Assembly (NCBI GenBank): GCA_000091205.1
Contig: AP006483.2
DNA: 64,000 nucleotides
Strand: one strand, 5' to 3'
Source: Cyanidioschyzon merolae
Lineage: Eukaryota
A program made the translations under genes and the position numbers. The notes below the pieces were generated by a model. That model searched no databases, was not told the origin of the DNA, and saw only the letters and a list, made by a program, of their open reading frames with translations. Positions 1,450-55,700 of the stretch are shown here, piece by piece. How positions within the stretch are numbered: the stretch's first letter is position 1; every line of letters begins with the position of its first letter.

Positions 1450-2260
1450 ATGACACATCATGGATTACCATCATGCATTCGCTGGTCTTCCAGGACAAGG
1501 AACTGTTGGCACATTAGAGTCTTTCATGGCAATTGTGCTTCACCTCCCAGGTACGTGCAATCAAATGCTTTTTCGTGGTTTATAGCGGATGCTTGCAAAG
1601 TATGTTCATACGCAAAAAATCCAAGGGAGAGGTATATAGTAAAAAAGGCGAGGTACCTGGAGCCTAGGTGTTGCCGCGGTAGACAGAAAACCGAAACGAA
1701 ATCCTCTTCCCGCCGACCGTCCAGCGAAGAAGAGCAAGTGACGAAGAAGCAGAAGAAGGGAGGAAATGGTCAAGAACAGGTAGTTGCCCGACGTGATGAT
1801 GACGAGACAGTAGGGGCACAAAGGGCAGGAATTCGAGGAGTCCTTGCAAAGGTGAGAACAACGAAAGCCAGTATACGCATGGAATTCGTGAACCGAGACT
1901 TCAACGATGCCACCAATACCAGATGATATGTGATACTGGAGGCGAGGCCCGCGCAGCTGACGAGCGCCAATTTTGTCGGGTAGCATCCCAGACCCGAGGT
2001 ATACAACCTGAGGTTGAAACCGATAGCAGGGGTCAGGCCGCAGAAGGCTGCGAGGCGTCCGCGGGTCGATGTATACAGGCACTCCACGACAGCGAAGCGT
2101 TTTCGTGCGAACGAGCATTTCGATCGAACGTTGGCCGAACATCGCGAGACCCGTTGTTCTGTCAGAAAGCTGGCATCCTGCGTTGGACACGAGCGCGAGG
2201 CACCGACGAAACGACGCATGCAATGGCCCGTAAGCCCCGAGTGCATCCCGTTTCGCTGCT
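1450..2260 (+). pseudogene. Copy A of a dispersed element encoding a basic protein with a C-terminal motif like TnpB/Fanzor RuvC-III (RDFNDATNTR). It is degenerate, with a stop at 1924-1926 and frameshifts where the homology continues
   Basis: ORF 1450..1926 (KNPRERY..., VVARRDDDETVGAQRAGIRGV..., MEFVNRDFNDATNTR) matches copy B at 30628..31324 at both protein and nucleotide level, about 75% nt identity. Homology continues past the stop (LKPIAGVRPQKA...AKRFRANEHF vs LKLIPGGRSKKS...AKRFASTEHI) but in shifted frames. Confidence 0.45.
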
Positions 2261-2310
2261 ATTCCGGACGCTTCGCGTCACCTGGATCGCTCCTGAGGAA
2301 GGATTTTGGG

Positions 2311-2326
2311 TGTGTGTGTGTGTGTG
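2311..2326. repeat. (TG)8 microsatellite
   Basis: tgtgtgtgtgtgtgtg read directly. Confidence 0.9.
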
Positions 2327-2959
2327 GTCAGTGCAAGCCGGGTTTAGAGTGGAGCAGTGGACGCTTCGATCACATCTGAGGAACGACGTTTGGTGCGCTC
2401 TTCATCGCAAGCCGGGGATCGTGCAGCAGCGCCGGACGCATGAAAGTCAGCTGCGGGACAGCGCGTCTGGTGCACGCGCATGAACAATAGGGGTTTGGAA
2501 TGGATCGGTGGCTGCTGCCCCGGATGCGCGATTGCTATGGACATGCAGGTGATCTCCCTGATTCGACTCATCGATCCTCCAACGTTGGAAAACATGGGGC
2601 ACGGCGCGCGCTACAGTCGCCACTAGGACGCGACTGCCGCCTTCGCTATCACCTACCAGCAGTCGTTCCATTGGCTTGGCATCATCGTTGCGGACTTTTT
2701 CTTGAAGAATAAGGGCGATCTTCGGGGATTACCGCGCAGCAGTGCTCATTACGAGAATGTACAGAGAAAGCAGAGCATCGCTGGGCGCGACATCACAGAC
2801 ACACCTGACTGCATCTCGAGTGTTCGCATCGAATCTGATCGTCATCAGAGACCAGCGTCTGGAATAGACTGGAAACGCCGCGATGACTTGACGAAGCACT
2901 CGCAACCTAGGTCATCATGACAGCGGTTGTGCATTCGTCTCCAGAATGCGTCACGTTCA

Positions 2960-5770: not shown

Positions 5771-7405
5771 TCATGGAGACGAGGGGCTTTTTGACCGGGG
5801 ACTGTCGACGCGTAAAGCCCCCATCTGCGCTTCCACTGCCAGGTTTGCGTGCAATGCGAGCTTTCTCGCGGCGCTGTCATCAAACTGGCGCCAAGGTCTA
5901 AACCGATCCGTACATGAGCTGGCTCGCGGACCAGGTCCGCTGCTTTTCTCCGAATGAGCCAATTCACCCGTGTTTTCCACAAGTCTGCGACGATCTTCGG
6001 GGGGTAGTCTCTCTACCATGGAATTGGCGTCCTCTGCAGCGTATGCTCGGAGCGCCCCAAACAGCTGACGGGCAATGAAGCGCACCTTAGCCTGCGAGTC
6101 TCTGATCGCCAAACGAATGCAAGATTCGATTTCCGAGCGAATGGCGGCATCGCTCCACAAGGAGGACGCATCTTGTCGGAGCACAGTCGTTTGTGCGGCT
6201 CGGGGAAGCGCAACGGCCGACTCGGATTTTGTACCGACCTGTAGTACGAGACAGGCATACATGCCACAACGCTCCCGAAGCACAGGATGCTGTTCAGCAC
6301 CAGCACATGCTTTCAACAGGAATTGAAGCACGGGGAATAAGAAAGACGGATGCGACGCAGCGTCGCGCAGTACTTGCAGCAGTCGATGGGCGCACGCGTC
6401 TGCAGCATCATAAAAGACTTTTTTTGTGCGTATCAATACCGGAAAAATAGCGAAGCGAAAAAGGTAGAGCGCGATTTCAACGGGAGCCCGCCGTCTCGAT
6501 GCGCTCGCGGATGCGTTCAGCTGATGCGTCACTGCGCTTTCTCGCTTCGATGCCGCTGCGACTGGATCGTCTCCGAAGACTGCTCTTGCCGCATCCATCT
6601 CGCCGCTGGCTGGGTTGCTGATCGATACGAGTTGCTGCGCCTGGAGGCAAATGAAGGATTCGCTGTCGGAGGAACGCACAGGGGCTGTGCCGGGCTCGCA
6701 CGCTGCAGGTCGTCTCCATGTGGACCCGGATCGCAGTCCGCACGTATCATTGATCTGCTCTTGTAGCCGTTGTTGTTTTAGGGCAGCAAGCTCTCTCTTG
6801 AGAGCCTGTTTTGGCTGGCTTCGTCCGGGATCGATCATCGACGCACCGCGCATTGAGGTTTCCAACTCGTTGATGGCCGCCTCTAGCGCGGGGCCTAGGA
6901 CGAATTCTCCAAACCAGCCAAGAAAATCGAGACCATCCTTCGCGAGCTGGGAGCGAATGTCCGCGCAAACCTTCACCAGTGCTGTAAGGAGCGTCTCTTG
7001 GTGGCCGTTCGCTCCAACCGCAACGGACGCTTGCTCGCAGCTCATTGCTTGTTGGTGTAGCTTCCATACAATCTCACAGAACTCTAGTGCTGCGTTCTGG
7101 TTCGCCAGTCGTGCACTACTATCGCCGACAAGTAGGGTGCGCTCTAACAGTGAGCGCAACGCGTGCAACGCAGCTGCTTGGTTTTGCCAGGGCAGAACTG
7201 CGGGGCAGGTGTTCTCGTCGTTTTCTACAGCCTCCTCAGTTTTATCAGAGGGAAGACAGGCTGAAGTCGCTCCATCGCGAGTTCCAGAATAGATGCGCTT
7301 CACAAGCTCATAGCGCTCTATTGAGATCCAAGCGTGGGTAGCGGAATCCATTGTGAGAAGTTTGAGGGTGCCGCCTGAGCACACAGCAGCATCGCTGGTG
7401 GGCAT
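5771..7405 (-). CDS. Hypothetical protein, predicted helical/coiled-coil; no family recognised
   Basis: 544-aa uninterrupted ORF with protein-like composition, e.g. LKRELAALKQQRLQEQ. No diagnostic motif found. Confidence 0.4.
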   Translation of the reverse strand: MPTSDAAVCSGGTLKLLTMDSATHAWISIERYELVKRIYSGTRDGATSACLPSDKTEEAVENDENTCPAVLPWQNQAAALHALRSLLERTLLVGDSSARLANQNAALEFCEIVWKLHQQAMSCEQASVAVGANGHQETLLTALVKVCADIRSQLAKDGLDFLGWFGEFVLGPALEAAINELETSMRGASMIDPGRSQPKQALKRELAALKQQRLQEQINDTCGLRSGSTWRRPAACEPGTAPVRSSDSESFICLQAQQLVSISNPASGEMDAARAVFGDDPVAAASKRESAVTHQLNASASASRRRAPVEIALYLFRFAIFPVLIRTKKVFYDAADACAHRLLQVLRDAASHPSFLFPVLQFLLKACAGAEQHPVLRERCGMYACLVLQVGTKSESAVALPRAAQTTVLRQDASSLWSDAAIRSEIESCIRLAIRDSQAKVRFIARQLFGALRAYAAEDANSMVERLPPEDRRRLVENTGELAHSEKSSGPGPRASSCTDRFRPWRQFDDSAARKLALHANLAVEAQMGALRVDSPRSKSPSSP

Positions 7406-8219: not shown

Positions 8220-8495
8220 CCACGGTTGCTCCTCGGGTTTCCATTTTTTCGATATCTGCGCCGCCTGATCGGCATCCGAGTCTTCTGCTGCGCTTTTACT
8301 TTGCTCGCATGCGCTGGGGCGACATCTTACCACTGCCGCTCAAAAAGGGTTCTCCCACGGTTGCTCCTCGGGTTTCCATTTTTTCGATATCTGCACCGCC
8401 TGATCGGCATCCGAGTCTTCTGATGCGCTTTCACTTTGTTTGCGTGCGCTGAGGCGACACCTTACCAATGCCGCTCAAAAAGGGGCCTCGGTGGC
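8220..8495. repeat. 135-bp minisatellite, about 2.05 copies; units start at 8220 and 8355, followed by a degenerate partial third unit
   Basis: Unit ccacggttgctcctcgggtttccattttttcgatatctgc(g/a)ccgcctgatcggcatccgagtcttctg... repeated almost exactly. It produces the duplicated peptide TVAPRVSIFSISAPPDRHPSLL in ORF 7892..8452. Confidence 0.85.
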
Positions 8496-9691
8496 GACCA
8501 AGTTGCTACCAACTGGGGCACGGCGAGAATCTCAGCCGTGCCTCTGTTGCTGGGGCTGCACGCGAGCGCTTCCATCCCAGTTTGGGTCCCAGACGCTGTC
8601 GCACCATGACGCTTGCTCTGGAAATTGCCTTGTTTTCTTGGAGTGCGCGCCCCGGTCTCCCGGTGGCATTGGCGGCACATAGGCTGGAGGATCCGGGTCA
8701 GGTGCTGGCGACGCCCCAAGGGTGCCGAGTTGCGATGTGCGCGCCCTCCAGGCCATACCAGGCCCGAAACCGAAGATTGATCCAGCATGCTCATATCCGA
8801 AACCTGCTCTTCACAAAAGCTGTTTAGCGGTAGTTTTCATAATAAGAAGCGCGCAGTATAGCCGATCTGCCATGCACATGCAATTCAAGCACGGTTGCTA
8901 CCCGCTCTCGAGAATCGTTCATCCAGTGGACTTCCTTAGGGCGCGTGCCAGCACTGGAGCGTTCGGAGCGCTCCTTCGAGCTGCGTGTGGGCTCGTGCGC
9001 TACGACCGGGTGCGCGTATTCCCGCGGCCGATGCACCCGCCACACCTGGCCCCCGTGCTGCAGGGTGTATGCTACGCTTTCCAGGGTGCATTGCAACGCC
9101 TCGATGTATGTCAAATTGCATTTGAAAGGTAACGAGCGGACTCGGGTCAAACCGTCGTGTCCATACCTTATCATATACAAAGAAATGAAAGGATTTTAGG
9201 ATGCGCCACTAGGTCGTTGGTTGCAGCGGTACCGATCGGGTTGGTCATCGAGCATTGCGGAACATAAAACATGGTTTTTTTTCATGGACAAAACGTTTGC
9301 TTCGGCCAGCGTTCTCCGATTGTGCACTTTTCCTTTTCTTTTTGTTTGTGTGTGGTGAGGCATCCATGAACCCCCTACTCCCAAGTTACATTACGTATAC
9401 TTCTTCTCGGATATTCTGCTCATTTCATACGTCCTATCGTGTGCCGAGCCTGCCGAGCGCGTCAGCAATGGCACCTGTAGCGCCGACAGAACACGGTGCT
9501 CGCGTCGAGCCGCCGGCGTCGGAATCGCCATCGCGAAACGATTGTCCATGATGTCGCAAATCAAGATGCCATTTCGCTCGCGGCCTAAGAAACGCTCGGA
9601 TCGTGCGCAGCGTATATGTGCAGGCCTTTGTTAGCGAGACTTTGGCGAATACGCGCTGGCTCGGGCGGCAGCAAGCCAGCATTTCTCGGAA

Positions 9692-17843: not shown

Positions 17844-17997
17844 TATCACGCTGCTGTTGAATGCCGTTTCGTCGATACACACCAAGGGCGGATCTTGTAG
17901 CTTTCGAACAGAACAGATTATATCACGCTGCTGTTGAATGCCGTTTCGTCGATACACACCAAGGGCGGATCTTGTAGCTTTCGAACAGAACAGATTA
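17844..17997. repeat. 77-bp tandem repeat, two near-identical copies
   Basis: Unit tatcacgctgctgttgaatgccgtttcgtcgatacacaccaagggcggatcttgtagctttcgaacagaacagatta starts at 17844 and again at 17921. Confidence 0.85.
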
Positions 17998-18941
17998 TTT
18001 GGCATGAGAGGCCCTGTGAGCCTTCTGCAACAATTTGTGAACCAGGCGTCAAGGGAACGCCTCGCGTTTTCTGTCCCTCGTGGGTCTAGCGGCACGACAT
18101 GCTGCGTTCACCAGGTGATATGAAAGATGGAAAACTTGAAGAATGCATGATTTGCGCATGCTGCACGCAAGGAACCGAGAAGATAAAATCCTTGTACATT
18201 TTCAGTGGATAATGATTTCGATTAGGGCACGAACCCGTATTCGAGGGCGTGGTGAATCATGCTGTATTCCGCGGACATAACGCATTCCAATGGACGATTT
18301 GAAAGAGCGCCGCTCTGAGTAGACGACCGAGAATCCTGGAAACGCGTACAACTCTGTAATCTCTTATTGCAATGAATGGAAAATCGAGTCCGTGTATCTA
18401 ACGAGGTTCGCAAAAATCGAAAAGCAAGAACATCACAGGCATTCCAGAGCTCCAGTCTGAAACGGATGCAGCGCTCGAGATCTGATCAGCTTGCTTGTCG
18501 TACCCTTGATCTACAGCGCGTCTGAGGTGGCTTGCATCAAAGTTTTCCACATGCCGAGCTCCTGCTTGTCAAGGAGAATCGTCGGCCATTCGAAGCGTCC
18601 GAGTGCAGCGCCTCATCCTCTGTGCGTATGGCTGTGTCTCTACGTGCTGGTTCTTGTTGCCATATATCGACAACGACAGTGAAGCTCGTCGAACACAACA
18701 CCTCTGGTGACGGCAATGACGACAAATGAAGGTGAACCTTTCAAAGAAGTTAGCTGCAGGGAAGCAGCAGCATGGGAACGGCTCTCCAGGTGGTCCAGTA
18801 CTTGCCGGGGCGCGGGTGACGCCCAGTGACACCGTCATAGCGGAAATACCTCACCAGTTCAAGCTTCAGACCGAGTTGCAGTCAATCAGTTCGCTTTGGG
18901 TGCATTTATCCGAGTTGGAGTTTCGGTTTTTTTTCCAGTTT

Positions 18942-23213: not shown

Positions 23214-24831
23214 CAGAACGCCTGAGGAAGCTGCGCACTGCGCGGAGCGCGCGTTTCAAATTCCCGGGTGCGACGCAGTACGCAAGAAGCGAAAACGCTT
23301 CTCTTCTGTGTATATCGACCCGCAGATACATTCCCGTCTCCCTGGACCGACCCTTTGCTATCGGTTTCATCTTCTCCGTGTCCATTTCAGGCCTGAGAGG
23401 CTGCACCACAAAATTAAGATCGCCTCAGGTCCTCGGGTCTCGGCCTCAGCACCACATATCTTCTTATATGGATAGCAGCGGTAAAGTCTCGGTTCACGAA
23501 CGCCGTGTGTTTATTGCCGCGGCCGCTTGAACTGGCAAGTGCAAGGAGTCCCGGAACGCATGCTTTCAGTCCCATTTGCTGTTCGGTTGGCTCTCTGCGC
23601 GTTTCTAGTGCCGGAGCACTCCGCTGACTTTTCTCCATCTCGATCGTCTGAAGTGCACTCGCTGGATCATCCCTTGGTTGTTTTACTTTTGAAAATGAAA
23701 GCAGTTATTGATGCCCCTAGCTTGAGACCTATTCGGAAGGGGAATCACTTGTGCAGGGAAGAGGATACATGCCCCGGTGTGTCGTCGTGTGCTGAACGCT
23801 TCAGCGATTCACTCAGTGGAGCGATCACTCCGAATCAGGACTGAAAGCACCCCTTCGATGTCGCTGGACCGCCGAGCGTATGGAGGAGTGATAAGCAGCC
23901 CAAATCCGATAAAAGTCGCAAAAGCTCAAAGGCGAAGGCAATGGTGAAATACCACGTTGTCTAATAGAGGGGCGTCGCGAGACGTCAGGCGGAAAGTCTT
24001 CAACGATTTGGCAAATTGGGTGCTGTTGTGTTTGCCCTCCCTGCCAACTAAACTGAGGCGGTCAAATGAAGCTACTGCAGTTCGACTAGATGAGGATACC
24101 TTCGTTCTCTTCGAGTTCCATCGCACATACCACAGGCGCCCTGCTTCGCGAATACCCATATACGCTCCGAATGTTTCGCCCGGGGGAAGTCTCAACAGCT
24201 GAAAAAGAAAAGAAACCGACGTCCCTGTGCCTTTAACCGATCGCGACGTTCCAGGAAGGCTGTCGCCGTGATTTCGGTTGAAGATGGCTATGCTTGAACT
24301 AGGACTGTTTATGCGACAATATCCCTGTGGTTTGAGGACTATATGAACAAGCTGTTGAGAAACAGAGGTGCACACTCTGGCTGCGATCGTCGCTTTTTGC
24401 TTTCCGTACGTTGATCAACTAGTCGTTCTCTACCATTGACCGCAAGCAGTCTTTGACAATACCAGTTTCGCCGCAGAGCGCATATCCTTGTTACTTTCAG
24501 AGTCCCTCAAGCATCGGAGTAACGTGGTATGTCGTATCTGCAATCGGAATGCAGTCCTCCTTGCACTGTCCAGTACAGAATATATCCTGCAGGCAATTCT
24601 TCTACGATCTATGCTATACAGCGCATCGTGATTTTCATCTCCAGCTATTCACCACAGCGGAGGAAGTGAAACCGAATTGACTTACAGACTGAAACGGCGA
24701 TCTAGGATCCCTAGCAGCTCCAAGAGACACATAACTCCGCACCCGTGCGCATCGCCGTAGATTGTATACCTGCCGACATTCGCTCCGTGTGACTGGATAG
24801 CACTTTTCACCGCTTGGAGCGTCGTAAGCGT

Positions 24832-29300: not shown

Positions 29301-29909
29301 GATACCTCCAAGTTCTATGATTTGTGCTTGCTCGTAAAGAGAATGGTTATTTTTTGCGGCCCATTGTTCGCTGAGCTTGTCCGGTTTGGTGATCGGCGGT
29401 ATGCGAAACCGGGTCAGATGAACACGGAGCAGTGGACAGCTCGTTATGTTGTTGCGTTGAGATTTGTTTGCGTTCGTTTTTTGGGTGTGCAGCCGCGGTA
29501 GTACAAGAGCGGCAATGGGGGCTTACGGATTGGTACGTGGTTTGAAGATTCCTGGGTGTCGTTTCCGAGAGGTTGCATCGATGCTTTTCTGCTGGGATTC
29601 GGCACGGCGTCGGAATCAAGATCATTCGCGATGCCCTCGAAAAAGAGTTCGTCAAATAAGCGGTACCAGTATCCAATTTATAAGTGCAAACTTCAATTCT
29701 GATGCTTTCCGGATGTAAAGCATGGTCCAATCTTGCATTCTGCGAGTTCTCGACCTCTCTGGTACAAGGCAACTCGGATTCGCAGCCATTCGCACAGCTC
29801 GATCGACGCGGCGAAAAGCCCGAGGTCGACCCCTGCAGGCCTCTGCAGGTGCTCCTGCTGAAAGCGCACTGAACTCGTCACGGCAAATCATCGATTTCGT
29901 TTGGAAGAC

Positions 29910-30047
29910 GAATTCTACTGCTTTTACAGTTATTGACGATGCTGTACTCCACATCGGCGTGGTACCTCTCACAGGGACGAATTCTACTGCTTTTCCAGTT
30001 ATTGACGATGCTGTACTCCACATCAGCGTGGTACCTCTCACAGGATA
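29910..30047. repeat. 69-bp tandem repeat, two copies
   Basis: Unit gaattctactgctttt(a/c)cagttattgacgatgctgtactccacatc(g/a)gcgtggtacctctcacagg starts at 29910 and 29979. It produces the duplicated peptide in ORFs 29652..30113 and 29933..30169. Confidence 0.85.
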
Positions 30048-30627
30048 TGCATTCAGAAGCTTTCGCCTCTTGTATTTGCATAGAGAAAGGTATTGGACGC
30101 GGACTCGAATCATCGGAGCGAACGCTTCCAGCGGAGCATGCGTCGCCGCTTTGTACCGAGGGAGCGTAACAAGATCGGAAATTTCGCGACTTGATCTGCA
30201 GTCTGGATTCTCTTTCTGGTACTTGTCTCGTCATGGGCAGTATCGCTTTGCAACAATCCTTATTCGAATGGAACAGCGTGGCCTTGCGCATGGAGCAGAA
30301 AAAGTCCTCGACGAGTGCAGCATCCAGAGGAATACCGCTATGGTCAGGTACGACACCTCGTGCGGAATCCTCGGAAGGCATCGAGCAAACTCTGGTTTGC
30401 CAGTCAAGGGCATATATCTAGCTATGAAAGAAGGGTTCACGTGCCACAGGTCGGCGCCCGGACGTACAGATGAGGTGCAACTATGGGAAACCTTACCAGA
30501 GCCAGGTGCCGCCGCTCCGATAGGCACGCCGAGCCTCTATACGAAGGATATGAAAAAGGCAAGCGAAGCGGAGAGTGTAACTACCGCCTCTGCATGAAAT
30601 GTGTGCGCACAGCTGAAAGCGGCGAAA

Positions 30628-31324
30628 TCATGACTTTAATCCTGCAACCAACATTCTCCGACTGCTGACTGCGGAGCTGGAGGAACAGTTGCGACCGGAG
30701 AATTTACAGCCGGAGATGTGCTCAGTGGAGGCGAAACGTTTCGCAATCCTAGAGTGCGAATGTATATGCGCAACTTCAGACGGCTCACAGCTTTTTTTCG
30801 ACCGCCCCCCTGGTATCAATTTCAGCTTCTCCTTGTACACTTTTAGCCTGAGAGGCTGCTCCACAAAGATGGCTCGCGTCAGCTCCTGGGGTCTCGTCTT
30901 CAGCACCGCGAATCGTCTGATATTGATGGCAGCATTGAAGTCTCGGATCACGGACTCCATGCGTTTCTTGCCGCTGTTTAAAAAAACTAATCCAATTAGT
31001 ACTCGTGCTCCTGCCCTCTTTGCCACTGCAGTTTCGTCATCGTCCCGTCGGGCGACCACCTTTTCTCGCCTATCTCTACGCTTCTTCTTCTCTTTGATCT
31101 TCGTCGCCTGCTCTTTTTCTTTCGGTGGTCGCCGAGAAGAGGATTTTTCGATTCTTTTCATGCAGCCGGCAATGACGGCCCTGCAGGATCCCCAACTTGA
31201 CTGTCCCTACTTTTCCCTTGGGATTTTTATGTTCAAAATTGAACGCACTTCGAGCTGGTCTGCTGGAAACCGCGAAAACGCATTTCATTCCACGCACGTG
31301 GGCGTAATACACAATTGAGTCCAA
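30628..31324 (-). pseudogene. Copy B of the dispersed element, homologous to 1450-2260 in the opposite orientation. It encodes a KR-rich basic protein with RDFNAAINIRR, a TnpB/Fanzor RuvC-III-like motif. One frameshift occurs between ORFs 31076..31324 and 30628..31161
   Basis: ORF 30628..31161: ...KVVARRDDDETAVAKRAGARVLIG...KKRMESVIRDFNAAINIRRFAVLKTRPQELTR.... The upstream piece HKNPKGKVGTVKLGILQGRHC matches AKNPRERYIVKKARYLEPRCC of copy A. Nucleotide alignment with copy A was checked over more than 300 bp. Confidence 0.45.
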
Positions 31325-32997
31325 CGACTGTCATCGAGGAGGGCTCGTCCAGCTTCTCTCTCGATAACTTGCCTCGTCAGGCGGCAGGTTGCAGGAGTTC
31401 CAGATGCAAGGCTGCCAGGTGTCCCCATTCGTTTGGAATTTTCGATGAATTCTTCGTGCGCCAACTCATCTGGTGCACTGGACAGAATATGGAACATGGC
31501 TTGATCGAAGAATCAGAAACGTGCGCACAGGCTTTCCCGAGCACCTTGAGATGTTGCCGCGCATCGTCGGCGATTGGAACCTGTGAAGCGCCCGTTGCCA
31601 AAAAGCATCAATTCGGGGAAAGAAACTCATCTCCAACCGACCTGGATAGATAGAGAAGAAAACGTTTTCTGTGAGCGTGAATCTCGGCTTGAGGAATCTC
31701 GTGGCTGCCGAGGTACTTGGCAATCAAGAGGACGGAGCCAAAGAACGCAACGGAAACGAGACGAAGGCGCCGAACATTTCCCTGACTTGGTATCAACGAG
31801 TCGGCCATGCTGGACGCTTCAAGAGATGCCAACGACAGGAATGACGGTTTCAGGACTATTACTGAACCGCTGCGCACCCTGTCGAGCAGAGACGATCGCG
31901 TTGTTTGCTTTATTCAGGGCGTACAAGAGACCGCGCTTGGGTAGCCATCGGTTTCTGTTGTACGGAGACAAGACGCGGGCATTCGTCAACTTGTGCAATG
32001 CGTTGGAAAGGAAATGAACGACAAGTCGCGTCGTTCGGTGCTGGGCTCTATCGCTGGACCTCCCCTAGCCCGGTCATATTTACTCGTGCTTCCTGTACGA
32101 AAGCTTAGAGTTCGTGCAGGAATCGATGCTGTGCGATTCCCATGGATGCGTGCAGAGCGAAAGAAGAGCATCATGAGCACGCGTCCACGCTGGAGCACAT
32201 AGAGAAGCAGAGCCAGATGCATTCGATGGTGTTTGGTACGCTGACAGAAAGTCAGGCGGCGAGGTCATCAAAGCTACGAAGCTTGAGATGGGATGACTCC
32301 AACAGCGATCGTGCCCGCAAGCGCTTTCTGCATCGAAACCAAAAGCGCCTCGGTCAACATCCGGAAATGTCTCATGCTCCCGGAGCGTCCAGTTGCGTTA
32401 CATCGTGCAAAGTTTCCAGGGATCGTTTTGTACTTTGTGCAGGTATTGCCCGTTACCGCTGAAGACTTGAGATGAGAAAATCAGTGGCCACCAGAGATGG
32501 TATTTGATTCTCGCTAGGGGCAACAGAATTCTATACGAAGTTTGAGAGATTTGGCAATGCTGACGCCCTGCAGAGAAGCTCCGGGAAAGGTATCCCCGGA
32601 CAAGTGGTGAACGATCATGGTGTCCCGCTATTCGATCTACCGAGTATTTGTGGCAGGAAAGGTCATTCATGCATATCTGGCAGGGCCCGCCGCTCTCGAC
32701 ATACTCGTGTCTGAGACGCCATTGCGGCGTTGATCTAGCCGCTGCGACATATGAAGTTTTTTTGCAATACTCCCGTCATGCGTGCTGCTATTCGGCGCCA
32801 CATTTGGCACCGGACACGCTACCGATTCTCTCAGTCATCTTCGGTACCAGGGTGACAATCTTAGAGTTCGAATGCGCGCGAACAGATCTCAAGGAAACTT
32901 GGATGAACACTGGCGCATGTGCTGCTCAAGGCTGTCGCTCGCAAGGGGACTCCTGAGCCGTCCAGAATCTGCAGCAACTTCGCTATGATGAAACGTC

Positions 32998-33015
32998 CGC
33001 CGCCGCCGCCGCCGC
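32998..33015. repeat. (CCG)5-6 microsatellite
   Basis: ccgccgccgccgccgc read directly. Confidence 0.85.
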
Positions 33016-33918
33016 AACAGCAGCCAGCATCTGGAAAGAGCTCTATATCCAGAGCGTTGGTAGATTACTTCAGCGTCTAATTCTTCGAGCAGGACTGCTC
33101 CTGGGTGGGCGAAATAAAATAGCGTCCATGGAGCAACTGACGTCCCTGGGCGCTTACCGGCAAGGAGCGTTCCCGTCGAACCCGGATTCGATTCGTTGAT
33201 CTGCCGCCGATAGAAGGCACACGGCAATGACGCCCCCAGCCTGGTATCGCATGGAGGAAATAGTCTGGCAACTAAAATAGGCATATTGTCACCGTATCTC
33301 TCTGTTCAGCGCTCACGCACGCTTCCGCGCCGCACCCAACACGCAAAAAGTGTCGTGCATACGACCATGTTCGAGGATGCACCGAATTTCTTGAGCGACC
33401 CTTTTGTATACGTCGCGGAAAAAGCAGAAGCGCCTCCAACCATTGCATGACTATCGCGCCAGCCAGGGCACTGCCGGATGCTCTATCGCCTCTTATTGCC
33501 GCACCACGACGCTTCCAATGACGCCACACGACAGCCGGCGGAACACCACTGCGTGCAGCCGCCGCACGTGAATACTGTAAATTCCGAAGTGGAACTGTCT
33601 TTGTTTCTCTGCATATCGATCATTATCTCCCAGTTTGTGTCTCCAGAGTCGATTCAGTGATTCTGCAGCATCGATAAACTACGGCGAGCGCTTTTCGCGG
33701 ATGCAGCGGCGCACCAGACCCGCTGCTGGGCGCTTGAATTCCGAACGCAGGCGCGCATTGGCGGCACGCACACACGCACGTAGACACGTTTCTTCCTCCG
33801 TGCGTGTCGACTGCAACACGCACGCTCTTTGTTACCTGATTAGGAACTGTTTCAAGAGTACGCATCAAAAAAAGAGACTGCACCAGGTCTAATGTTCAAG
33901 TAGACGGCTTGGGTTTCT

Positions 33919-36900
33919 ATGCCGCTTGTGCCGGAGTTTCGAGTGATTTTCAGGTGCTCGAGCGCCGTGCGAACTATGGAGGAACTTCGTGCATACCTCC
34001 GCGAGCGCAGACACGCTGAACTCTTTGGGTTTCTGAATCGCCACGCTGGTGTAGATGATGCTGGTAATCTTGTAACGGTGGATGCTGGTGGCGCCTCCCG
34101 CAGCACTGGTGGGTGCGCGGGTACGTTCCCTGAGGCGCTTCGAGAACCGGACTCAAAAACTACTGCTCGAGGGGGCGCGCTCCAAGCAGAATCTTCTGGA
34201 CAATTACTTAACCTTGATTCAGAAATGAAAAATAGGGAATTGGAGTCGCAGCGCTTCCAGAACAGTCTATCCGCTGCTGGTACGCTTCCACCCGATGGTG
34301 GAGTCTCGAGCCCGAAAGCCCGCAGCGTGTCGGAGCGCCCAGCAGCGAGACTGGTGCGAGATCCAGCACAGCCGTATCGCGGAGCTTCCCAGCATGGCGC
34401 GCATGGTGTTAAGAACATTCCCGAAAGTTTGGACCCGAGCCAGCCTGACGATAACGAGCTCTGGCTCGTGTCGGAGCTCGGGGCGTCCAGTAACGACGAG
34501 CGAACAGTTCGTAGTCACGACAGTGTATCTGAGGTGCCGGACCCGCCCGCAGCAAAGAGCAGGCCGGATGAAGGGGCGTTCTCGATGAACCTGAGACCTG
34601 GAAGCCAAACACACATGAAAGCGCTGCGAGCCTCCGACGTAGAATGGGTCTGTGAGCGCCGTTCCTTGAAAAGAGGTCCCATTGCAGGGAGCGATTCCGG
34701 CGATTTGGTGATGAATTATGATGGGACAAGAGAGCATGAGGCGAGCAATGCGACAGTTGCGTTCCCTGAGAGTACTCATGGTGGAACGAGATCTCCTGTA
34801 TCGGGCACCAGCTCAGACGAGGATATATTTGAATCCATCCTCGGGGAAAATCGGCAGTACACGTTCTCTGTTCCAAAGCGTGCTCGCATTCGGTGCATGG
34901 AATTGCCGGATATGGATGAAATCCTTAGTTCGTTACGGGAGGCGGAGCCTGTGAGCGCTAAGTGTGAGACAGACCAACGGGAACGAAGCGAGGCGAGCGT
35001 GTGCTCGGGAACAAGTCACTGTGGCTCACCCAAAGCAGCAGTTTCGCCAATCGACGGACATAGAAACGTTGTCAAGCCCCTAGGAGATTCTACCAAATCA
35101 AATGTGCTGCCCGCTGAAATAGATTTGCGGGATCAATTGCCAAATAGTGGAGCGGTTCCTGCGACGCCGCATGCACCGACAACATTTGGAGGCCGCACGT
35201 CCTTTGTCTCACCGTATGTTGCGCCCAAACAACAGCATCCTCAAAGGACAGCAAGTCCAGAAAGTGCATCGATGCGGTCACCAGGGAAGGCCGCACTGCC
35301 AGAGACAAAGCACTCGAGCACTCGAGTGATTCCGCATGCTACGCGTCATGGTGAATCGCCAAGCAGCCCGGTGGTGGTGTGCGACACCTCGTCAACGCTT
35401 CCCCGTGAGTTGAATGAGTCCAGTGGAACAATCGCATCTACTGATCATCGCCGAGAGGGTCCAGGATCAGATCGGCCCAGTGCTCCTGAAAAGATGCGTT
35501 CTGAGCCTTCTGCTCTTCTTCTGAAAAAGCGGCAGGTTGCCTTAGAGCGGCTTATGCGATTGGAAGACGAATTTCTCGAGACCATCGATGCAGAACAAGC
35601 TGAACGGCTGCACACGCTCATCGAAAAAACGAAATCAGCCATACAGCATATTGATCGATGTCTCGGGAATGACGTTGCTACGAAGAAAGCAGCAAGCTGC
35701 ATACCGAATCCTGACGTAGATTCACAATCCCAGCGAATGGCGAGCTTAGCGAACGCTGCGGCGCTCTCGGCCAGCGGTGCTCGCCCGAGCGGAACACATG
35801 ACGCAGAAAACGCGTCTCCCGCGAATCCCGCAAACAGCTCATCTGGCGAGAGTGCGTTTCGTTGCAGCGCCTCCACTAAGGACGTCGTCACGTTAACGGG
35901 ACTGCGAAGCGAGCGCTACGGCTCCATGGCAGGTGCATCAGGAGCAGCGCCAGCTTGTGTCGGCAAGATTGGTGAGACCTCAGATCGTGCTGTCGACGCA
36001 GCCGAGGTTCACATGGCCATGACTGACCATTACCATGAAGAACAGCCCGTATCCAGACTTTACGACAAATCAAGTGTACCTGTAATCGAAGGCAGCACGG
36101 GGGCGCCCGCTGTCCCGGTCCAAATGACAACATCAGACGCAGTGGATCTCGATGAGGTCTTCGAAGCGGCCTGTGCTCAAGCTTCTGCCGAATTTGCTGG
36201 TGATAACTATCCGTGGTCAGCACAGCTGCATCACAACAACCGTGTTCAGTTCGGTAATCAGGGATTTCGTGCCAATCAGAAAGAGGCAATCAATGCGGCC
36301 ATGTGTGGGCGCGACGTTTTCGTCCTGATGCCCACAGGGGGCGGCAAGTCTCTCGTCTATCAGCTGGCCGCGACGCTCACGGGACCAGCGGGCTGCGGTG
36401 TTACTGTCGTGGTCTCGCCTCTGAAATCGCTTATCATGGATCAAGTGATGCGTTTGCAGGCGCTGCGTATTCCATGCGGTGCCCTGTGCGGCGCGACCTC
36501 GGAAACGGAATCTCGAGAGCTTATGCGTGATCTTCGCAGCTTGCATCCAAAGACTCGGATTCTTTACGTGACTCCCGAGAAAATAAGTCTTTCGGAGGCG
36601 TTTCGGTCCATACTCGATTGGCTTGCCTCTCGAAAACTTCTCGCTCGATTCGTGATCGATGAGGCGCACTGCGTGAGTCAGTGGGGCCACGACTTCCGCC
36701 CCGACTACAAGCGGCTTAGTCTCTGCAAGCAACGTTATCCGTCCGTCCCGCTGATGGCTCTGACGGCCACAGCGACAAGAGAGGTGCGAGAAGATGTCAA
36801 AGTGCAGCTAGGCATCCCACGCTGCGTTACTTTCAAACAGAGTTTCAATCGGCCGAATATTTCGTACGAGGTTTATCTCAAGGGGCCTCGTTCCAAGACT

Positions 36901-42289: not shown

Positions 42290-43655
42290 TACACTCGTGT
42301 ACGAATGGAATGGGACAGGTGCCCGATCAAGGCCGTATACGCGGTAAAGATTTGGTCTCTTTCCGTTGCCATCAACACCAGCGTTTCCGGGGGGGTTTCC
42401 TGTGACTCGTTTCGTCTGCTCCCTCGTACCTCGGGTTTTCAATGCACTGGTCGTTCCGGTCTCTCAAGCGCTATCGCTAGCAGTCAAGGATGTTGAGAGC
42501 GGCGTGAAGGTTCAGATCTCGCCGCTTCTCACTGTTATCGACACAGTTGGTATACCTGCGGTAGCTGCGATCTTCGCTTCGCATGCCGCTTTCATCTTGT
42601 CTATATACAGTCGCGGTATGCGCTTCGCAGCGGTGGCGCCTGGCCTGGTTCAGGCGCTCTGATACGTCGAGCAAGCCGCTTACTCCGCGAGCCGGCTGGT
42701 GGCTCGTGAACGCCTGCTTTATCGCTCGCTAGGCGCCCGGGACGCGTAGCGAAGAGTCCCGCTGATGCCCGCCTGCGATGCAGCGCCCGGTGGGGTACCT
42801 CTTGCGACCAGAAGCTTCTCGTGAGCGATCGCTTTCGAGCATGCACTGTTTGCTGCACAGGTAAGCGCGCGCGCTTCCATTCGGTAGAGCGTTTGTGGCA
42901 CGTGGTGTTGTTCCCGGTAAGCGAAAGCCGGACTCCTAGTCTAGGCAGGGGAACAAGCCGAGATACTCCGATCCGACTACACACGCCTCGTGCGAACCGG
43001 AGACGCGCTCTCCACGGGGAACCTTCGCTGCGCTGACCCGAATCCTGGTCCAAGACTCTTTGCGCTTCGAACGCGCAAGTCACGGGATCCTCGGTCAGCA
43101 TGCGCCATGCGAGGTATCATGCTGGTGTCGAATGGCAATTCGTTGAAGGGTCTAAGAATCAGAGGGCTTGCGCTTCGAGTGGAATCGATTATTAGGGAGA
43201 GGAATGCTCGGCGGACACTTGGCGTGAGCTCGTGAAAATGCCTGCAGAGGAGCGTGTCGAGTATTTTTCGGCACCAGTACAGCGGCAAGAAAGGCTGTGT
43301 CCAGTCGTTGCCTTGAAACAGGAAGAAGGGAAACGTGAGGCATGCTCTATGTGAGCGATCTACGCGCAAGCCAGTAGAAGAATCGAGGCCAATGCGCTTG
43401 TACTGTTCAATGATATTGGACGTTTGACGAACGCTTGCTCGAAAGCGCGGTGGACCATGCTGATTCAGGTACTGTGAAAAATTGCAGATGCACGGGGTCG
43501 AAAGAGGCACTCGGAAACCTCCGCCGCTAATCCTAGAAAACCGTTTGAATTTGTCGGGCGCAATTGTTGCACTCCGAATGCGGAGGCTGTACATCGGGAA
43601 GAAGATGTTTGGAAAACGTCGAAGGGCACGAACACAGCGAGCAGTTCAGTATTCC
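42290..43655. repeat. Left arm of a long inverted repeat (IR-L), about 1366 bp
   Basis: It is the reverse complement of 47003-48369 at about 99% identity. Identical ORF pairs are 42366..42662(+)=47997..48293(-) and 42977..43594(-)~47149..47682(+). Pair 42601..43101(-) vs 47558..48058(+) differs at one residue (K/E). Boundaries were set by nucleotide comparison at tacactcgt and attcc. Confidence 0.9.
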
Positions 43656-44457: not shown

Positions 44458-45639
44458 TTGAGGGGCGCGTCTCTGCAACTGTGCGGAACCATGGGAACGG
44501 ATGATAGCGATACCCTTACAAGTGACGTTCAGTATCAAAAGCCGCAATCAGCAGTGATTCCGAACGGTACAGAACCAGCTGACGCTGACACTCAACTCTC
44601 TGCCTCGTCGAAAGAGGAAGCACTATGGAGGGCGAACGTGTTACGGCCGAGCAGAGATCTGGAGCTACTGCGGAGCGCTCCTTCTGTACAGGGTCCCGAC
44701 TTTAACACAGTCAATAGTGCAGATGATGTGGTGAAATCCTTTGCAACGATAGGATTCCAGGCTACTCAGTTCGCACGCGCAGTTGACGTTGTTCAACAGA
44801 TGCTCCGTGACGAGCGCGGTTGTGTCATTTTTTTGGCGTACACTTCAAACCTCGTCAGTAGTGGTGTTCGTGACGTGATCCGGTACCTCGTGCAACACCG
44901 CATGGTCGACGTCCTTGTGACAACAGCAGGAGGTGTCGAGGAGGACCTCATCAAGGTTCTGGCTCCGACCCTCATCGGCGACTTTCGCTTGCCTGGGGCA
45001 TTGCTGCGAGAGAACGGCCTCAACAGGATAGGCAATTTGCTTGTACCCAATGCGAATTACTGTCTTTTTGAGGACTGGCTCATGCCACTGCTTGACAAGA
45101 TAGTTGATGAAAGACGAATATGGACGCCCAGCGAGTTCATCCATCGCCTCGGCCAGGAGATACAACACGAGTCGAGTATCGCCACCTGGGCTGCACGGAA
45201 CGGAGTGCCGTATTTCTGCCCAGCGATTACGGATGGCTCGCTCGGTGATATGCTCTTCTACCATACATATCGGAATGAAACTCCACTCATCCTAGACGTT
45301 GTCGGCGATATCCGGAAACTGAATCGACTCGCGATTCACGCCAAATGCACGGCGATGATCATCCTCGGTGGCGGTGTCGCAAAGCACCACACCTGCAACG
45401 CAAACTTAATGCGCAACGGAGCTGACTATGCCATCTACATTAATACTGGTCAAGAATATGACGGAAGCGACAGTGGTGCCGCTCCAGACGAGGCTGTGAG
45501 CTGGGGCAAAATCCGCGGCTCCGCTGAAGCGATCAAAGTTTTCGGTGATGCATCGATATTGTTTCCGCTCCTGGTATCACAGACGTTTTGCAAGGTGCCC
45601 AGGCAACATCGACCGGACTTTGATGAAATCTCGGGGTAG
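44458..45639 (+). CDS. DHPS: Deoxyhypusine synthase, the enzyme for eIF5A hypusination
   Basis: Long collinear match to recalled human DHPS: [38 protein letters not shown]..., [24 protein letters not shown]..., [12 protein letters not shown]..., [57 protein letters not shown]. The start may be the Met at 44491 (MGTDDSD). Confidence 0.92.
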
Positions 45640-47002: not shown

Positions 47003-48369
47003 CGGAATACTGAACTGCTCGCTGTGTTCGTGCCCTTCGACGTTTTCCAAACATCTTCTTCCCGACGTACAGCCTCCGCATTCGGAGTGCAACAATTGCG
47101 CCCGACAAATTCAAACGGATATCTAGGATTAGCGGCGGAGGTTTCCGAGTGCCTCTTTCGACCCCGTGCATCTGCAATTTTTCACAGTACCTGAATCAGC
47201 ATGGTCCACCGCGCTTTCGAGCAAGCGTTCGTCAAACGTCCAATATCATTGAACAGTACAAGCGCATTGGCCTCGATTCTTCTACTGGCTTGCGCGTAGA
47301 TCGCTCACATAGAGCATGCCTCACGTTTCCCTTCTTCCTGTTTCAAGGCAACGACTGGACACAGCCTTTCTTGCCGCTGTACTGGTGCCGAAAAATACTC
47401 GACACGCTCCTCTGCAGGCATTTTCACGAGCTCACGCCAAGTGTCCGCCGAGCATTCCTCTCCCTAATAATCGATTCCACTCGAAGCGCAAGCCCTCTGA
47501 TTCTTAGACCCTTCAACGAATTGCCATTCGACACCAGCATGATACCTCGCATGGCGCATGCTGACCGAGGATCCCGTGACTTGCGCGTTCGAAGCGCAAA
47601 GAGTCTTGGACCAGGATTCGGGTCAGCGCAGCGAAGGTTCCCCGTGGAGAGCGCGTCTCCGGTTCGCACGAGGCGTGTGTAGTCGGATCGGAGTATCTCG
47701 GCTTGTTCCCCTGCCTAGACTAGGAGTCCGGCTTTCGCTTACCGGGAACAACACCACGTGCCACAAACGCTCTACCGAATGGAAGCGCGCGCGCTTACCT
47801 GTGCAGCAAACAGTGCATGCTCGAAAGCGATCGCTCACGAGAAGCTTCTGGTCGCAAGAGGTACCCCACCGGGCGCTGCATCGCAGGCGGGCATCAGCGG
47901 GACTCTTCGCTACGCGTCCCGGGCGCCTAGCGAGCGATAAAGCAGGCGTTCACGAGCCACCAGCCGGCTCGCGGAGTGAGCGGCTTGCTCGACGTATCAG
48001 AGCGCCTGAACCAGGCCAGGCGCCACCGCTGCGAAGCGCATACCGCGACTGTATATAGACAAGATGAAAGCGGCATGCGAAGCGAAGATCGCAGCTACCG
48101 CAGGTATACCAACTGTGTCGATAACAGTGAGAAGCGGCGAGATCTGAACCTTTACGCCGCTCTCAACATCCTTGACTGCTAGCGATAGCGCTTGAGAGAC
48201 CGGAACGACCAGTGCATTGAAAACCCGAGGTACGAGGGAGCAGACGAAACGAGTCACAGGAAACCCCCCCGGAAACGCTGGTGTTGATGGCAACGGAAAG
48301 AGACCAAATCTTTACCGCGTATACGGCCTTGATCGGGCACCTGTCCCATTTCATTCGTACACGAGTGTA
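47003..48369. repeat. Right arm of the inverted repeat (IR-R), about 1367 bp
   Basis: See IR-L. The outer edge at 48369 lies only about 30 bp from the stop of the minus-strand 508-aa gene at 48399. Confidence 0.9.
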
Positions 48370-52736: not shown

Positions 52737-55700
52737 ACCTCGTACCTAATGGAATCGGAGCTGAACCATTCTGCTATCTGGAAGCGTACGTGACGCCAAT
52801 AAGCGCTTTGCTTTGAAAACAAATACAAATCAGTATACGAGCCTCCTGGAAAACTTGTTTTTTGAATTCGGTCGGATTGGCGGAAGCAGGATTGACGGAT
52901 ACCTGGCTCGGCGGAAGCGCTACGTCCGTGCGCTCTGCGCGTTGCGTGTACTCAGTAGTAGTATCGAAGAACAGAGCACCATTTTTGTTCACCAATCACT
53001 CAGGAAATCTGTTACCCGTGTACATAGATGGCGCGTCAGACTTACTGGATTGACGAAGCGTACCAAAGCGCAGCCTAGCTCGAGGCGGGAATCTCATGCT
53101 CTCCCGCCTATCCACTGATTCTTTTTCATCGAAAATCCGTAACGTCTCTGCACGATACCCGCATTGACTAGTGGACGATTCCAATAAAATTTCGCTCGAC
53201 GCAAACCCGCGACACGCTCCCGATGCATGAAGCATTCCAAGATATCGATCATGGCATCGAAGACTTGGCGCGAAGAACGGGTTTCCGCGCATAGTTGCTG
53301 GTGGAATCACACCAAAGCAAGCCGCTTATCTTCGAATGACTCGGGATCTGACGTCGGGTCAGCGTAGCACATACCACCTCGTAGATGCGGATCTGCTTCA
53401 CGCACTTCTTCTGTGTCTGGTTCACCGTGCAACGCTGCTCGTGACGCGTATACTTTGTCCAAAAGTCATCCATGGGGAAAGTATAGAAGCCATTCCTGGA
53501 CTCGATGTATGCATTCGTTCAGGGAGCAAGCATGCGGCATCTCCGCGGAACAGAATGTCCAGCGTCATAGGCCAGAACCGAGTTACGCGGCTTCTCAGGC
53601 ATTTGCTTTCCAAACTCATTGAAGAAGCTCGCAAATGCACGCGTCTTGGATCGGTGCAACCATACCCGTTGGCGAGCACAGCGAGGTCCGGTACACTCCT
53701 GCCGAAAATCGTTTGAATGAGCCAATTGAACGCTAATGTGCTCTGCGGATACAGCGTCGAAAACATCCCGTTCTATTCGAAAACGTGTTGAGAGAGCGTC
53801 AAGATAGGTCCTGATGCCGTCCTTCTCCGAGCGGGAATGGCTGCTGACGCCGAGCATGCTCGAGTCGCTAAGACCCGGAGCCATGGACAAGTTGAGCAGC
53901 TTCCGTGACATTCCATTCAAAAGCTCCGGGAATGCCGTCTTGATTCGGTAGCGTGGTGACGGCCGAGGTGTTGTTACGCCCGCGATCCACGCCCAACACG
54001 ACATGTTTATCTTTATGTACCTTGAACGGTTGAAAAGGGTTGCGTTGCCGGGCTCATGTCGAGCTCTCCCTAGTTTCAGTAAGTGCATACTCATTGACAA
54101 GTCCTCTTTCTACATGGTTCCTGTGAATTGCTTTCCATTGGCCCCGTGTTAACGAGAACGCTCGATGAGCCCCGCCAGTGCACTTCGCAAAGTCGTTCGA
54201 TTGCTTCGTTGTTGCTCGCAGAGCCCAGCGATAGCTCACCGTTCAGGCCATCGTGGACAATACTCCAGCGTTTATGATGCTAGACTGGGACTTGCTTTGG
54301 CATAAAGAGACTACATCGACCTGAAGCGCATGGGGGCAATGTCGCTCGCATTCGCAGAATGATGCCGCTCTGCCCTGAGCGACTCTGTTCAGGAGCGCGT
54401 ACCGGCACAATACGCAAGCACATCGGGCATTACGTTCGAATCATGCTTTGGATACGACATTGGTCGGCCCGAGTCCGGGCGCAACCCGAAGGGTTTCCAG
54501 CATCTTACGCGACGCCTGCTCTCTCTGTGTGATATCGCTTCGGAGTACGCGAACATCACGAGCTCTTCCACATCAGCATCAACACCACCAGCACCTCGCT
54601 GGCCGCCTTCGACATCCCAAGATTCCCTTGCTTCAGTTCCGAGTTTTCGGGCAAGAATGGCGTGCGTACACCGGCCACAGCCTGTGCTTCATGAAGCGCT
54701 TGACATTGACCCTGCATCTGAGTTTTGAGATTGGTCGTCTACTCGCTGGCACAAGCGCTGTCGACTTTTCTCGATCCCCAGAGTGGGCACGGCAGGCCAG
54801 CAGGGCGCGCTGGCAAGCTGGTTTAGCACCTTTCTGATCCAATGGTCAGGCTATGCTGCATCTTGGGTGCCCGGGGCATCAAGTACGTTGGCACACGAGG
54901 GTTCCATTGAAAAATTCCAGAGCATTGTAGGCACCTAGCTGGATTGCGTGCAGATTCCCCACGAACCGTTGCTTGACGAGCAGCGTGCATGCGAGTGGAG
55001 CTCGGCGAGTGCCCGTCTACAGCGAAGCTTTAGGATCCCTAATGACTTGGTGCACCGTTCTTTGTGGAAGATGCTCATCGAAGATCTGTTCGAGTCGCGA
55101 GGCCTTGGCAACGGTTCCAGATTGATCGGGTCGCTTCGACACTTTTTTCATTCCTGTCCGACCTGATCTTCTTTGGTGAGGATATTTCCATTCCGTTTTT
55201 CGTGTTGTGGTACTTCCTCTCGTCCACAGCGCTGCATAGCATAGATATGGACGCCACATGCCATCGTTTTCATTTCCGGGACTCAGATGCACTGGCTGGA
55301 CAATGAGACCCCAAATCGCATGCTCTACGTATGCCTATTCTATTCCTCAGGTGCATTGTCGTCATCGGCTTTGGTACGAGCACGCTCAGCGACCGAGGCG
55401 AGCCATTCTGGTTCCTCGCACTCACGACTGGACAAGCAATACTGCAGTTCAGGGCTGGGAAAGACCGAAAGCGATTTATCGAGGAACGTCATGTCGCAGA
55501 TGCGAACGACTTGTCCATGAATCCATCATCGTGAAAATGGCGTACAGCATCATATAAAACGCTTCCGAATGCATACGATAAGAAACGCAAGTTGCGACAA
55601 AGAGCAGCTGAACGCCAATCTCGGTTGCGTACTCCTGGACGACTTTTGAGTATTGAAAAGCAAACTTATCTGAAAGCTGGTCACATGAATGCGGTAACGA

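Follow-up and report, generated by a model that had tools for sequence, protein, structure and literature searches.

Dispersed repeats on chromosome 1 of Cyanidioschyzon merolae are very probably internally deleted, decaying copies of the Fanzor1-bearing CMe-1A family

Fanzor1 proteins are eukaryotic homologues of TnpB that act in other organisms as RNA-guided RuvC DNA endonucleases, and they are present in Rhodophyta (Jiang et al. 2023, PMC10530073). Fanzors possess a rearranged catalytic Glu, use a guide RNA that the element encodes at its 3' end, and carry N-terminal nuclear localization signals (NLSs) in ~60% of their open reading frames (ORFs), with 21 of 22 tested signals validated (PMC10530073). 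In the portions of Bao & Jurka (2013, Mob DNA 4:12, PMC3627910) used here, CMe-1A is the one Fanzor1 family listed for C. merolae, with ~150 copies that are ~80% identical to a 3169-bp consensus. The same portions, supplements included, describe CMe-1, the 734-aa Fanzor1 protein encoded by CMe-1A, and characterize the family as having no terminal inverted repeats (TIRs), target site duplications (TSDs) that were not determined, some copies that still encode intact Fanzor1, and a 5' 635 bp equal to another repeat, TE-N2_CMe; HAL1-type partial-ORF families are cited there as an analogy. Here we analysed a 64,000-nt stretch of chromosome 1 of C. merolae 10D (the window), with metagenome loci labelled L and database proteins labelled P. 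An initial annotation of the window had described decayed relics of a multi-copy Fanzor/TnpB-like family, a description borne out by tblastn with CMe-1, by profile comparisons and by the discovery of near-intact relatives. With a probability of roughly 0.93, we consider three repeats in the window, copies A, B and C, to be non-autonomous, internally deleted, decaying copies of the Fanzor1-bearing CMe-1A family. The Fanzor1 family itself is already known, and a mini-element subfamily with a shared deletion junction, together with an alternative 5' region, would be at most small additions. The features that carry this reading are as follows.

1500..2118, + strand: copy A, internally deleted CMe-1A-type Fanzor1 relic (blastn, local alignment, tblastn)
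1894..1926, + strand: degenerate RuvC-III motif RDFNDATNTR of copy A, then TGA (sequence reading, tblastn alignments)
23305..23670, - strand: copy C, last ~120 codons of a Fanzor1 of the CMe-1 type, matching consensus 2737-3110 (blastn, tblastn)
30709..31334, - strand: copy B, internally deleted CMe-1A-type Fanzor1 relic (blastn, local alignment, tblastn, alignments)
30913..30945, - strand: RuvC-III motif RDFNAAINIRR of copy B, within a 177-codon ORF
30628..31161, - strand: ORF177, residual open frame in copy B, starting at an internal ATG and not at the mutated family ATG

Self-blastn of the window matched 1699-2102 to 31146-30734 with 69.3% identity over 417 bp (E=2.8e-39), and local alignment paired copy A at 1513-2102 (+) with copy B at 31334-30734 (-) at 71.2% over 577 columns. 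The two copies lie in opposite orientation in unrelated flanks, and both methods confirm the opposite-strand pair that had been described; the homology stood, while the 75% identity and the span of 1450-2260 given for it had to be corrected to a slightly lower value and a somewhat shorter extent. The element does not occur in two copies only, as had been proposed. A third fragment of the same family, copy C, lies at 23305-23670 (-), first seen at 23306-23520 in the window self-blastn, and a more distant Fanzor1 family has left two further relics. When the copy-B peptide was searched against a 5.8-billion-protein collection, only P0001 (98% identical) and P0002 (216 aa, 54%) were returned, the latter encoded on a 12.6-kb metagenome contig, L001, which bears two repeat copies beside eukaryotic genes.

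We compared the three copies with the published family at both the protein and the DNA level. By tblastn, CMe-1 matched copy B at 31035-30790 (aa 640-722, 59%, E=1e-20), copy C at 23653-23305 (53%, E=2e-21) and copy A at 1795-2067 (aa 630-728, 45%, E=1.5e-15), all three matches being confined to the last ~85-100 residues of CMe-1, whose C-terminal end reads ...VTIPVDEFRTSYTHHELGCTLQRVEMEKCQRSPEDIEKYGALTEEQMERRAKVRGLLALVSTTSDGKKRMEFVNRDFNAAINIRRCAVLEKRPPELTRENFVGQPLKVELYEKKLEAVVGGRSKKTGRRLHVSWRRFV. Against the CMe-1A consensus, the ORF of which spans positions 906 to 3110, blastn and local alignment showed that copy A matched 771-1020 at 74.5% and 2793-3099 at 66.7%, copy B matched 800-1011 at 73.9% and 2809-3147 at 72.5%, and copy C matched 2737-3089 at 67.1%. 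In window coordinates, copy A is made of a 5' part at ~1500-1763 (consensus 771-1020) and a 3' part at ~1760-2076/2118 (consensus 2793-3099 and beyond), and copy B of 31318-31093 (consensus 800-1011) and 31048-30709 (consensus 2809-3147). The window copies are thus like CMe-1A in residing in the same genome, in being collinear with two consensus blocks at 67-75%, in lacking TIRs, and in being multi-copy and old, and their protein fragments, including ...GKKRMEFVNRDFNAAINIRRCAVLEKRPPELTRENFVGQPL..., are 45-59% identical to CMe-1. They differ from it in that A and B lack consensus ~1020-2826 as well as the first ~770 bp, the TE-N2_CMe-like part, and in that copy C and the L001 copy-2 type bear another ~1-kb 5' region, which we call region X. 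At ~620-650 bp and with a start at consensus ~771-800, A and B are not full ~3.2-kb elements with the TE-N2_CMe-like 5' 635 bp, and they are deletion derivatives rather than full CMe-1A members.

The RuvC-III Asp motif, (N/D)RD.NAA.N(I/M), is present as RDFNAAINI in copy B, as RDFTAAIHI in copy C and in the degraded form RDFNDATNT in copy A. The minus strand of copy B encodes the peptides ...KRMESVIRDFNAAINIRRFAVL... and ...GKKRMESVIRDFNAAINIRRFAVLKTRPQELTR..., and its RDFNAAINIRR sits at 30913-30945, where the initial annotation had placed it, in alignment with NRDFNAAINIRR of CMe-1 and with the RD..A positions that do not vary among other Fanzor1 proteins. Copy A reads ...RMEFVNRDFNDATNTR up to a TGA at 1924-1926, the in-frame stop noted earlier, and a further TAG follows downstream; immediately downstream of this copy there is also a (GT)n microsatellite, listed at 2310-2330. 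In copy C, the motif reads RDFTAAIHIRR and the frame is broken by one stop and one frameshift. Across five copies, represented by the window and L001 peptides, the motif and the RP..L.R that follows it are both conserved.

Copies A and B contain ~130 bp of 5' untranslated region (5'UTR) and the first 38 codons (MEKEVEDPGGPVSPAAGKKRKTVPSPEEQEKTKKQKREARR...), fused to codon ~641 onward and the 3' end. What they retain of the C-terminal part (...TEEQMERRAKVRGLLALV...NRDFNAAINIRR...) amounts to the last ~95 codons, including RuvC-III. At the junction, which lies at a GACG microhomology, ~602 codons (~1.8 kb, consensus ~1020 to ~2826) are gone, in frame. In multiple alignments, the junction peptide, ...GAGAAAAGGTGTTTGCCCGACG joined to GGACGATGACGAGAC..., is common to eight copies. 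Three of them (A, B and L001 copy 1) have a CMe-1A-like 5' region from consensus ~775, and the other five (L001 copy 2, L045, L055, L065 and L047) have region X as their 5' region. The majority consensus of these eight copies restores an ATG and an open frame across the junction, which, together with the shared junction itself, argues for a single deletion in a then-functional gene, the mini-element being copied afterwards. Since the same junction recurs in C. merolae and in metagenomic relatives, that is, in at least two cyanidialean genomes, the deleted form spread as a non-autonomous subfamily. On these alignments, the deletion arose once and the mini-element was amplified thereafter, as is usual for non-autonomous derivatives that keep both termini. 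Copy C represents a separate internal deletion, in which region X and the 5'UTR abut consensus 2737 directly. The mini-element resembles MITE-like (miniature inverted-repeat transposable element) internally deleted derivatives of DNA transposons, with termini kept, internal coding region lost and amplification after the deletion (eight copies); unlike them it shows neither TIRs nor TSDs, and Fanzor is not in itself a transposase. The portions of Bao & Jurka (2013) used here make no mention of the deletion subfamily; both this subfamily and region X might turn out to be already named in Repbase.

The odd architecture of the encoded peptides arises because the internal deletion fuses an N-terminal segment to the C-terminus, and it is not a new domain arrangement. 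The features that had been read as an atypical TnpB are an artefact of this deletion, given the collinearity of A and B with two consensus blocks. The "long KR-rich linker" is the protein's own K/R-rich N-terminus, brought next to the C-terminus by the ~1.8-kb deletion, and the zinc-ribbon-like stretch (H/A)KNP...C is, by consensus collinearity, a frame read through the 5'UTR. Similarly, what had been taken for a frameshift upstream in copy B marks the passage from UTR to ORF above 31161, where the family ATG is mutated, and does not lie within the coding region. The ~100-aa extension is composed of the family's normal 54-residue tail, whose RP..L.R signature is invariant in the other Fanzor1s aligned, and of read-through past the lost stop. 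The RuvC-I motif (GADPG in CMe-1) and the catalytic Glu (VDEFRTS) fall in the deleted part and are absent from A, B and C. The window copies are therefore without two of the three catalytic residues and cannot be nucleases.

The relationship of the family to Fanzor1 was evident in profile comparisons. The C-terminal half of CMe-1 aligned with six green-algal Fanzor1s (PMC3627910 supplement) by hhalign at 97.6% probability and E=3.8e-12, in an alignment that takes in the KQR..., VVAYGAG, PVDEFRTS and NRDFNAAINI blocks. Compared with the green-algal profile from which CMe-1 was left out, five window and L001 peptides gave a probability of 81.7% and E=1.1e-5 over RD.NAA.NI...RP..L. A profile of seven Fanzor1 sequences, with CMe-1 as one of the seven rows, was searched against the PDB and matched Spizellomyces punctatus Fanzor1 (SpuFz1, 8GKH; E=5.9e-15), the Mimivirus TnpB-like L79 (Fanzor2; E=1.8e-8), Parasitella Fanzor1 (PpFz1; E=1.8e-7), Guillardia Fanzor1 (GtFz1; E=1e-4) and ISDra2 TnpB (E=3e-4), with Cas12f and related entries weaker. 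The CMe-1 consensus shares with Fanzor1 (8GKH; Saito et al. 2023, PMC10432273; PMC10530073) the G.DPG of RuvC-I, the Glu motif (V/I)DE(F/Y)RTS, the RuvC-III motif N/DRD.NAA.N(I/M), the RP..L.R tail and a K/R-rich N-terminus. In contrast to Fanzor1, the window copies keep only RuvC-III and the tail, and the zinc-finger cysteines of CMe-1 are degenerate, HH..C...C rather than CxxC...CxxC. The likeness to prokaryotic TnpB (IS200/IS605, IS607; PF07282 OrfB_Zn_ribbon / Cas12f1-like_TNB) is a distant one at the profile level, through the RuvC-III signature; the differences are scores under the gathering thresholds of PF07282 and PF01385, no TnpA partner, a eukaryotic host and the long K/R-rich N-terminal region. 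This N-terminus is probably NLS-like, and by analogy with other Fanzors it may function as an NLS; on the same analogy, the intact C. merolae protein may be RNA-guided.

Near-intact relatives preserve the parts that the window copies have lost. A protein database search with CMe-1 yielded 43 relatives, among them P0078 (752 aa, 71% identity and 92% coverage against CMe-1) and the pair P0117/P0118 (~700 aa, P0117 having 702 aa; 42-43% to CMe-1; M start), which carries GNDPG, PVDEFRTTYTHHE (DEFRTT in P0117) and NRDFNAAINIRR. The metagenome scan gave 365 related stretches, from which 79 loci were retrieved; L009 holds a 778-codon open frame and most of the other retrieved loci are broken. Members with RuvC-I and the Glu motif, which had been anticipated, thus do exist in the near-intact P0078/L009 and P0117 (GADPG / GNDPG, DEF-R-T(S/T)).

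Several structural details of the retrieved copies were also recorded. Many family copies (L002-L080, e.g. L017 1071-1372, L007 7004-7232) contain 2-5 tandem units of 76-80 bp (consensus 2117-2196), which encode a repeated ~25-aa K/E-rich segment just before RuvC-I; the repeat is seen in P0078 as well. One subfamily has a ~100-430-bp copy of the 3' end (consensus 3073-3169 or 2737-3169) ~750 bp upstream of the start of homology at consensus ~650-670, as at L007 1078-1171, L019 695-790, L035 764-859, L051 766-861 and L002 508-943; this would be either a terminal direct repeat or the result of preferred tandem insertion. At the 3' junctions of ~35 loci (e.g. L024 4416, L002 943), conservation (TT[T/G]G[T/G]TG...) continues for ~10 nt after the published consensus stops, which probably puts the true 3' end ~10 nt beyond consensus 3169. 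Element copies begin at consensus 1, ~650, ~735 or ~780, and these differing 5' starts suggest that CMe-1A combines TE-N2_CMe with a shorter Fanzor unit.

A number of results weigh against this placement of the window copies. Pfam and NCBIfam returned nothing significant for ORF177, for the upstream 82-aa ORF, for their concatenate or for 30400-34000 translated in all three frames of the minus strand, and the OrfB_Zn_ribbon/TnpB assignment that had been expected of the window ORF found no match in Pfam. The full CMe-1 consensus gave on PF07282 only an 11-residue match of 11 bits (cutoff 26.3, E=0.52), P0078 reached 12.1 bits on the same model, under the gathering threshold, and single-sequence phmmer of CMe-1 found no entry in the PDB. 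In view of these single-sequence negatives from Pfam and the PDB, the placement in the TnpB superfamily rests on the profile comparisons and the published classification. As for membership in CMe-1A, the identity of 67-75% is below the family's ~80%, and because, in addition, no homology precedes consensus ~771-800 in A, B and L001 copy 1, these copies may form a sister subfamily. Around A and B, a search for TIRs and TSDs gave only short, non-shared, chance-level matches, in agreement with the portions of PMC3627910 used here, and what points to mobilisation in trans is copy number and the shared junction. Judged against the profile results, the Pfam failure is one of model insensitivity for a divergent Fanzor1 clade, not one of missing homology. 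Standard Pfam models overlook this clade altogether, so negative results from hidden Markov models are no ground for discarding relics of this kind.

We propose the following history for copies A and B. The full element, of ~3.2 kb, encodes a 734-aa Fanzor1. In an ancestor of A and B, ~1.8 kb (consensus ~1020 to ~2826) was deleted in frame at the GACG microhomology. The remnant comprised the 5'UTR, the initial 38 K/R-rich codons, the final ~95 codons, which carry the RuvC-III helix and the RP..L.R tail, and the 3' terminus. With both ends kept, this mini-element was copied further, presumably mobilised in trans. The copies subsequently decayed neutrally to 67-75% identity with the consensus, losing the start codon and, in copy A, gaining stops.

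An improbable alternative is that the mini-element is itself functional, the selected product being either the in-frame fusion of an NLS to the C-terminus or a guide-RNA region at the 3' end; it would then actively parasitise or regulate full-length Fanzor1 elements. We think it similarly improbable, in the more specific form of this idea, that such a mini-Fanzor is a satellite using full-length Fanzor1 in trans through a guide-RNA/right-end module, or a small nuclear interfering protein. The deletion is indeed in frame and the eight-copy consensus is open from the ATG across the junction, yet an in-frame junction has a one-in-three chance anyway, and none of the three window copies has both the family ATG and a frame free of stops, the mutated ATG being seen in A, B and L001 copy 1. 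Also in favour of function, the subfamily is known with two distinct 5' regions and from no fewer than two genomes. At L081, a collinear and 99%-identical relative of the locus with copy B at the same site, the ortholog of ORF177 differs by six substitutions, 3 nonsynonymous and 3 synonymous, too few for a selection test. Divergence over the ORF177 region is 1.2%, the level of the intergenic flanks, compared with 0-0.6% for the neighbouring genes; ORF177 thus seems to evolve like the intergenic DNA around it, with no sign of constraint in this comparison. For a guide RNA, it can be said that the 3' end encodes one in characterised Fanzors (PMC10530073) and that hairpin-forming segments are present in the 3' ~130 nt of 26 family copies. 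Over these 26 copies, however, RNAalifold gave -7.2 kcal/mol with a covariation term of -0.15, pair counts and hand-drawn hairpins revealed covariation no greater than in shuffled controls, and Rfam had no family above threshold across the whole window.

Chance resemblance, in which the repeat would be a non-coding dispersed sequence and RD.NAA.NI an accident in one of six frames, is next to impossible in our judgement. The lack of any Pfam or NCBIfam match would fit such a reading, as would inter-copy tblastx scores that are similar in several frames, as for neutrally diverging DNA. Yet the CMe-1 matches already refute it: the similarity to the Fanzor1 consensus protein runs through 83-99 residues with 45-59% identity (E to 1e-21) and is not limited to 9 residues, the DNA is collinear with two blocks of a published element, and the motif and RP..L.R are kept in five copies. 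We give just as little credence to a remnant of a prokaryotic IS200/IS605 or IS607 tnpB, brought in by recent horizontal transfer or contamination. TnpB does have the RuvC-III motif in common with the family, and the Fanzor1 profile does reach ISDra2 TnpB (E=3e-4) and Cas12f. The flanks, however, are C. merolae nuclear genes (five window ORFs match C. merolae 10D proteins exactly, RecQ XP_005535083.1 and CMA085C among them), the orthologous locus is collinear at 99%, and among solved structures Spizellomyces Fanzor1 comes out closest, ten orders of magnitude ahead of TnpB. The family moreover has the Fanzor-type rearranged Glu (DEFRTS) and the K/R-rich N-terminus, and neither a tnpA-like ORF nor a Pfam TnpB match was found.

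The analysis reveals debris of Fanzor1 transposons in unannotated, supposedly intergenic parts of C. merolae chromosome 1, a point of little import beyond annotation. Metagenome gene callers make spurious proteins from such debris. ORF177, which crosses the in-frame deletion junction and, with the family stop gone, continues into the 3' end and the flanking DNA, is absent from the annotated C. merolae protein set by exact-sequence look-up; the decayed frame is called as a gene by metagenome pipelines (P0001 / L081 4001-4534), and one source names P0001 "adenine-specific DNA glycosylase", a spurious annotation. Efforts to reconstruct an active red-algal Fanzor1 and its guide RNA could draw on the mini-element subfamily and on the family's abundance (365 related stretches) in hot-spring metagenomes.

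The remaining repeat-derived features of the window are listed below.

9374..9454, + strand: 81-bp piece from the TE-N2_CMe-like part, matching consensus 84-166 at 83% (blastn)
23670..24653, - strand: region X, ~1-kb alternative 5' region above copy C (DNA comparison)
31889..32460, + strand: relic E, C-terminal third (~aa 500-700) of an older, divergent Fanzor1 (tblastn with CMe-1, P0117 and P0118)
53273..55145, - strand: relic D, near-full-length (aa ~48-656), heavily mutated Fanzor1 pseudogene, P0117/P0118-like (tblastn)

Region X is found always directly upstream of deletion-type Fanzor copies, in the window and in related genomes (L001 10895-11633; L065 6061-7048; L047 2223-3210; L045/L050 ~5000-5930; L055). 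Comparison with the CMe-1A consensus and with Fanzor proteins revealed no DNA or protein similarity, and we rejected region X as a part of Fanzor or of CMe-1A on that ground.

Relics D and E belong to a second, older Fanzor1 family, nearest to the metagenomic P0117/P0118 and with the signature GLLWCDSTS. Both are also picked up by CMe-1 in weaker and longer tblastn matches, relic E at 31907-32421 (+) and relic D at 53902-53282 (-). Relic D matches P0117 aa 364-656 at 31% (E=3e-30) and P0118 aa 48-345 (E=1.5e-5); it has many stops, a destroyed RuvC-I and a mutated Glu block (MDDFWTKYT), with FPMDDFWTKYTRHE kept. Relic E, which lies head-to-head with copy B and has DNA similarity to relic D in the window self-blastn, shows frameshifts, stops and degraded motifs (IPMDACRAKE; SASVNIRKCLMLPERP), the Glu block being mutated to MDACRAKE. 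Insertion of copy B into relic E was considered and rejected, as no remainder of E was found beyond B, and relic E is therefore treated as 5'-truncated.

Elsewhere in the window, a 1366-bp inverted duplication of 99.6% identity (42290-43655 and 47004-48369) brackets a deoxyhypusine synthase ORF (44458-45639); the ORFs of its arms (166 and 205 aa) have no Pfam match, and the arms are unlike CMe-1A. Short tandem duplications occur at 60810-61243 (144-bp unit, three copies) and, in two copies each, at 8220-8484, 17844-17998, 29907-30044 and 300-427 (units of 135, 77, 69 and 76 bp, respectively). The window as a whole has a GC content of ~55% and long, intron-free ORFs, and the plastid-associated families DUF1350 and DUF3326 are present.

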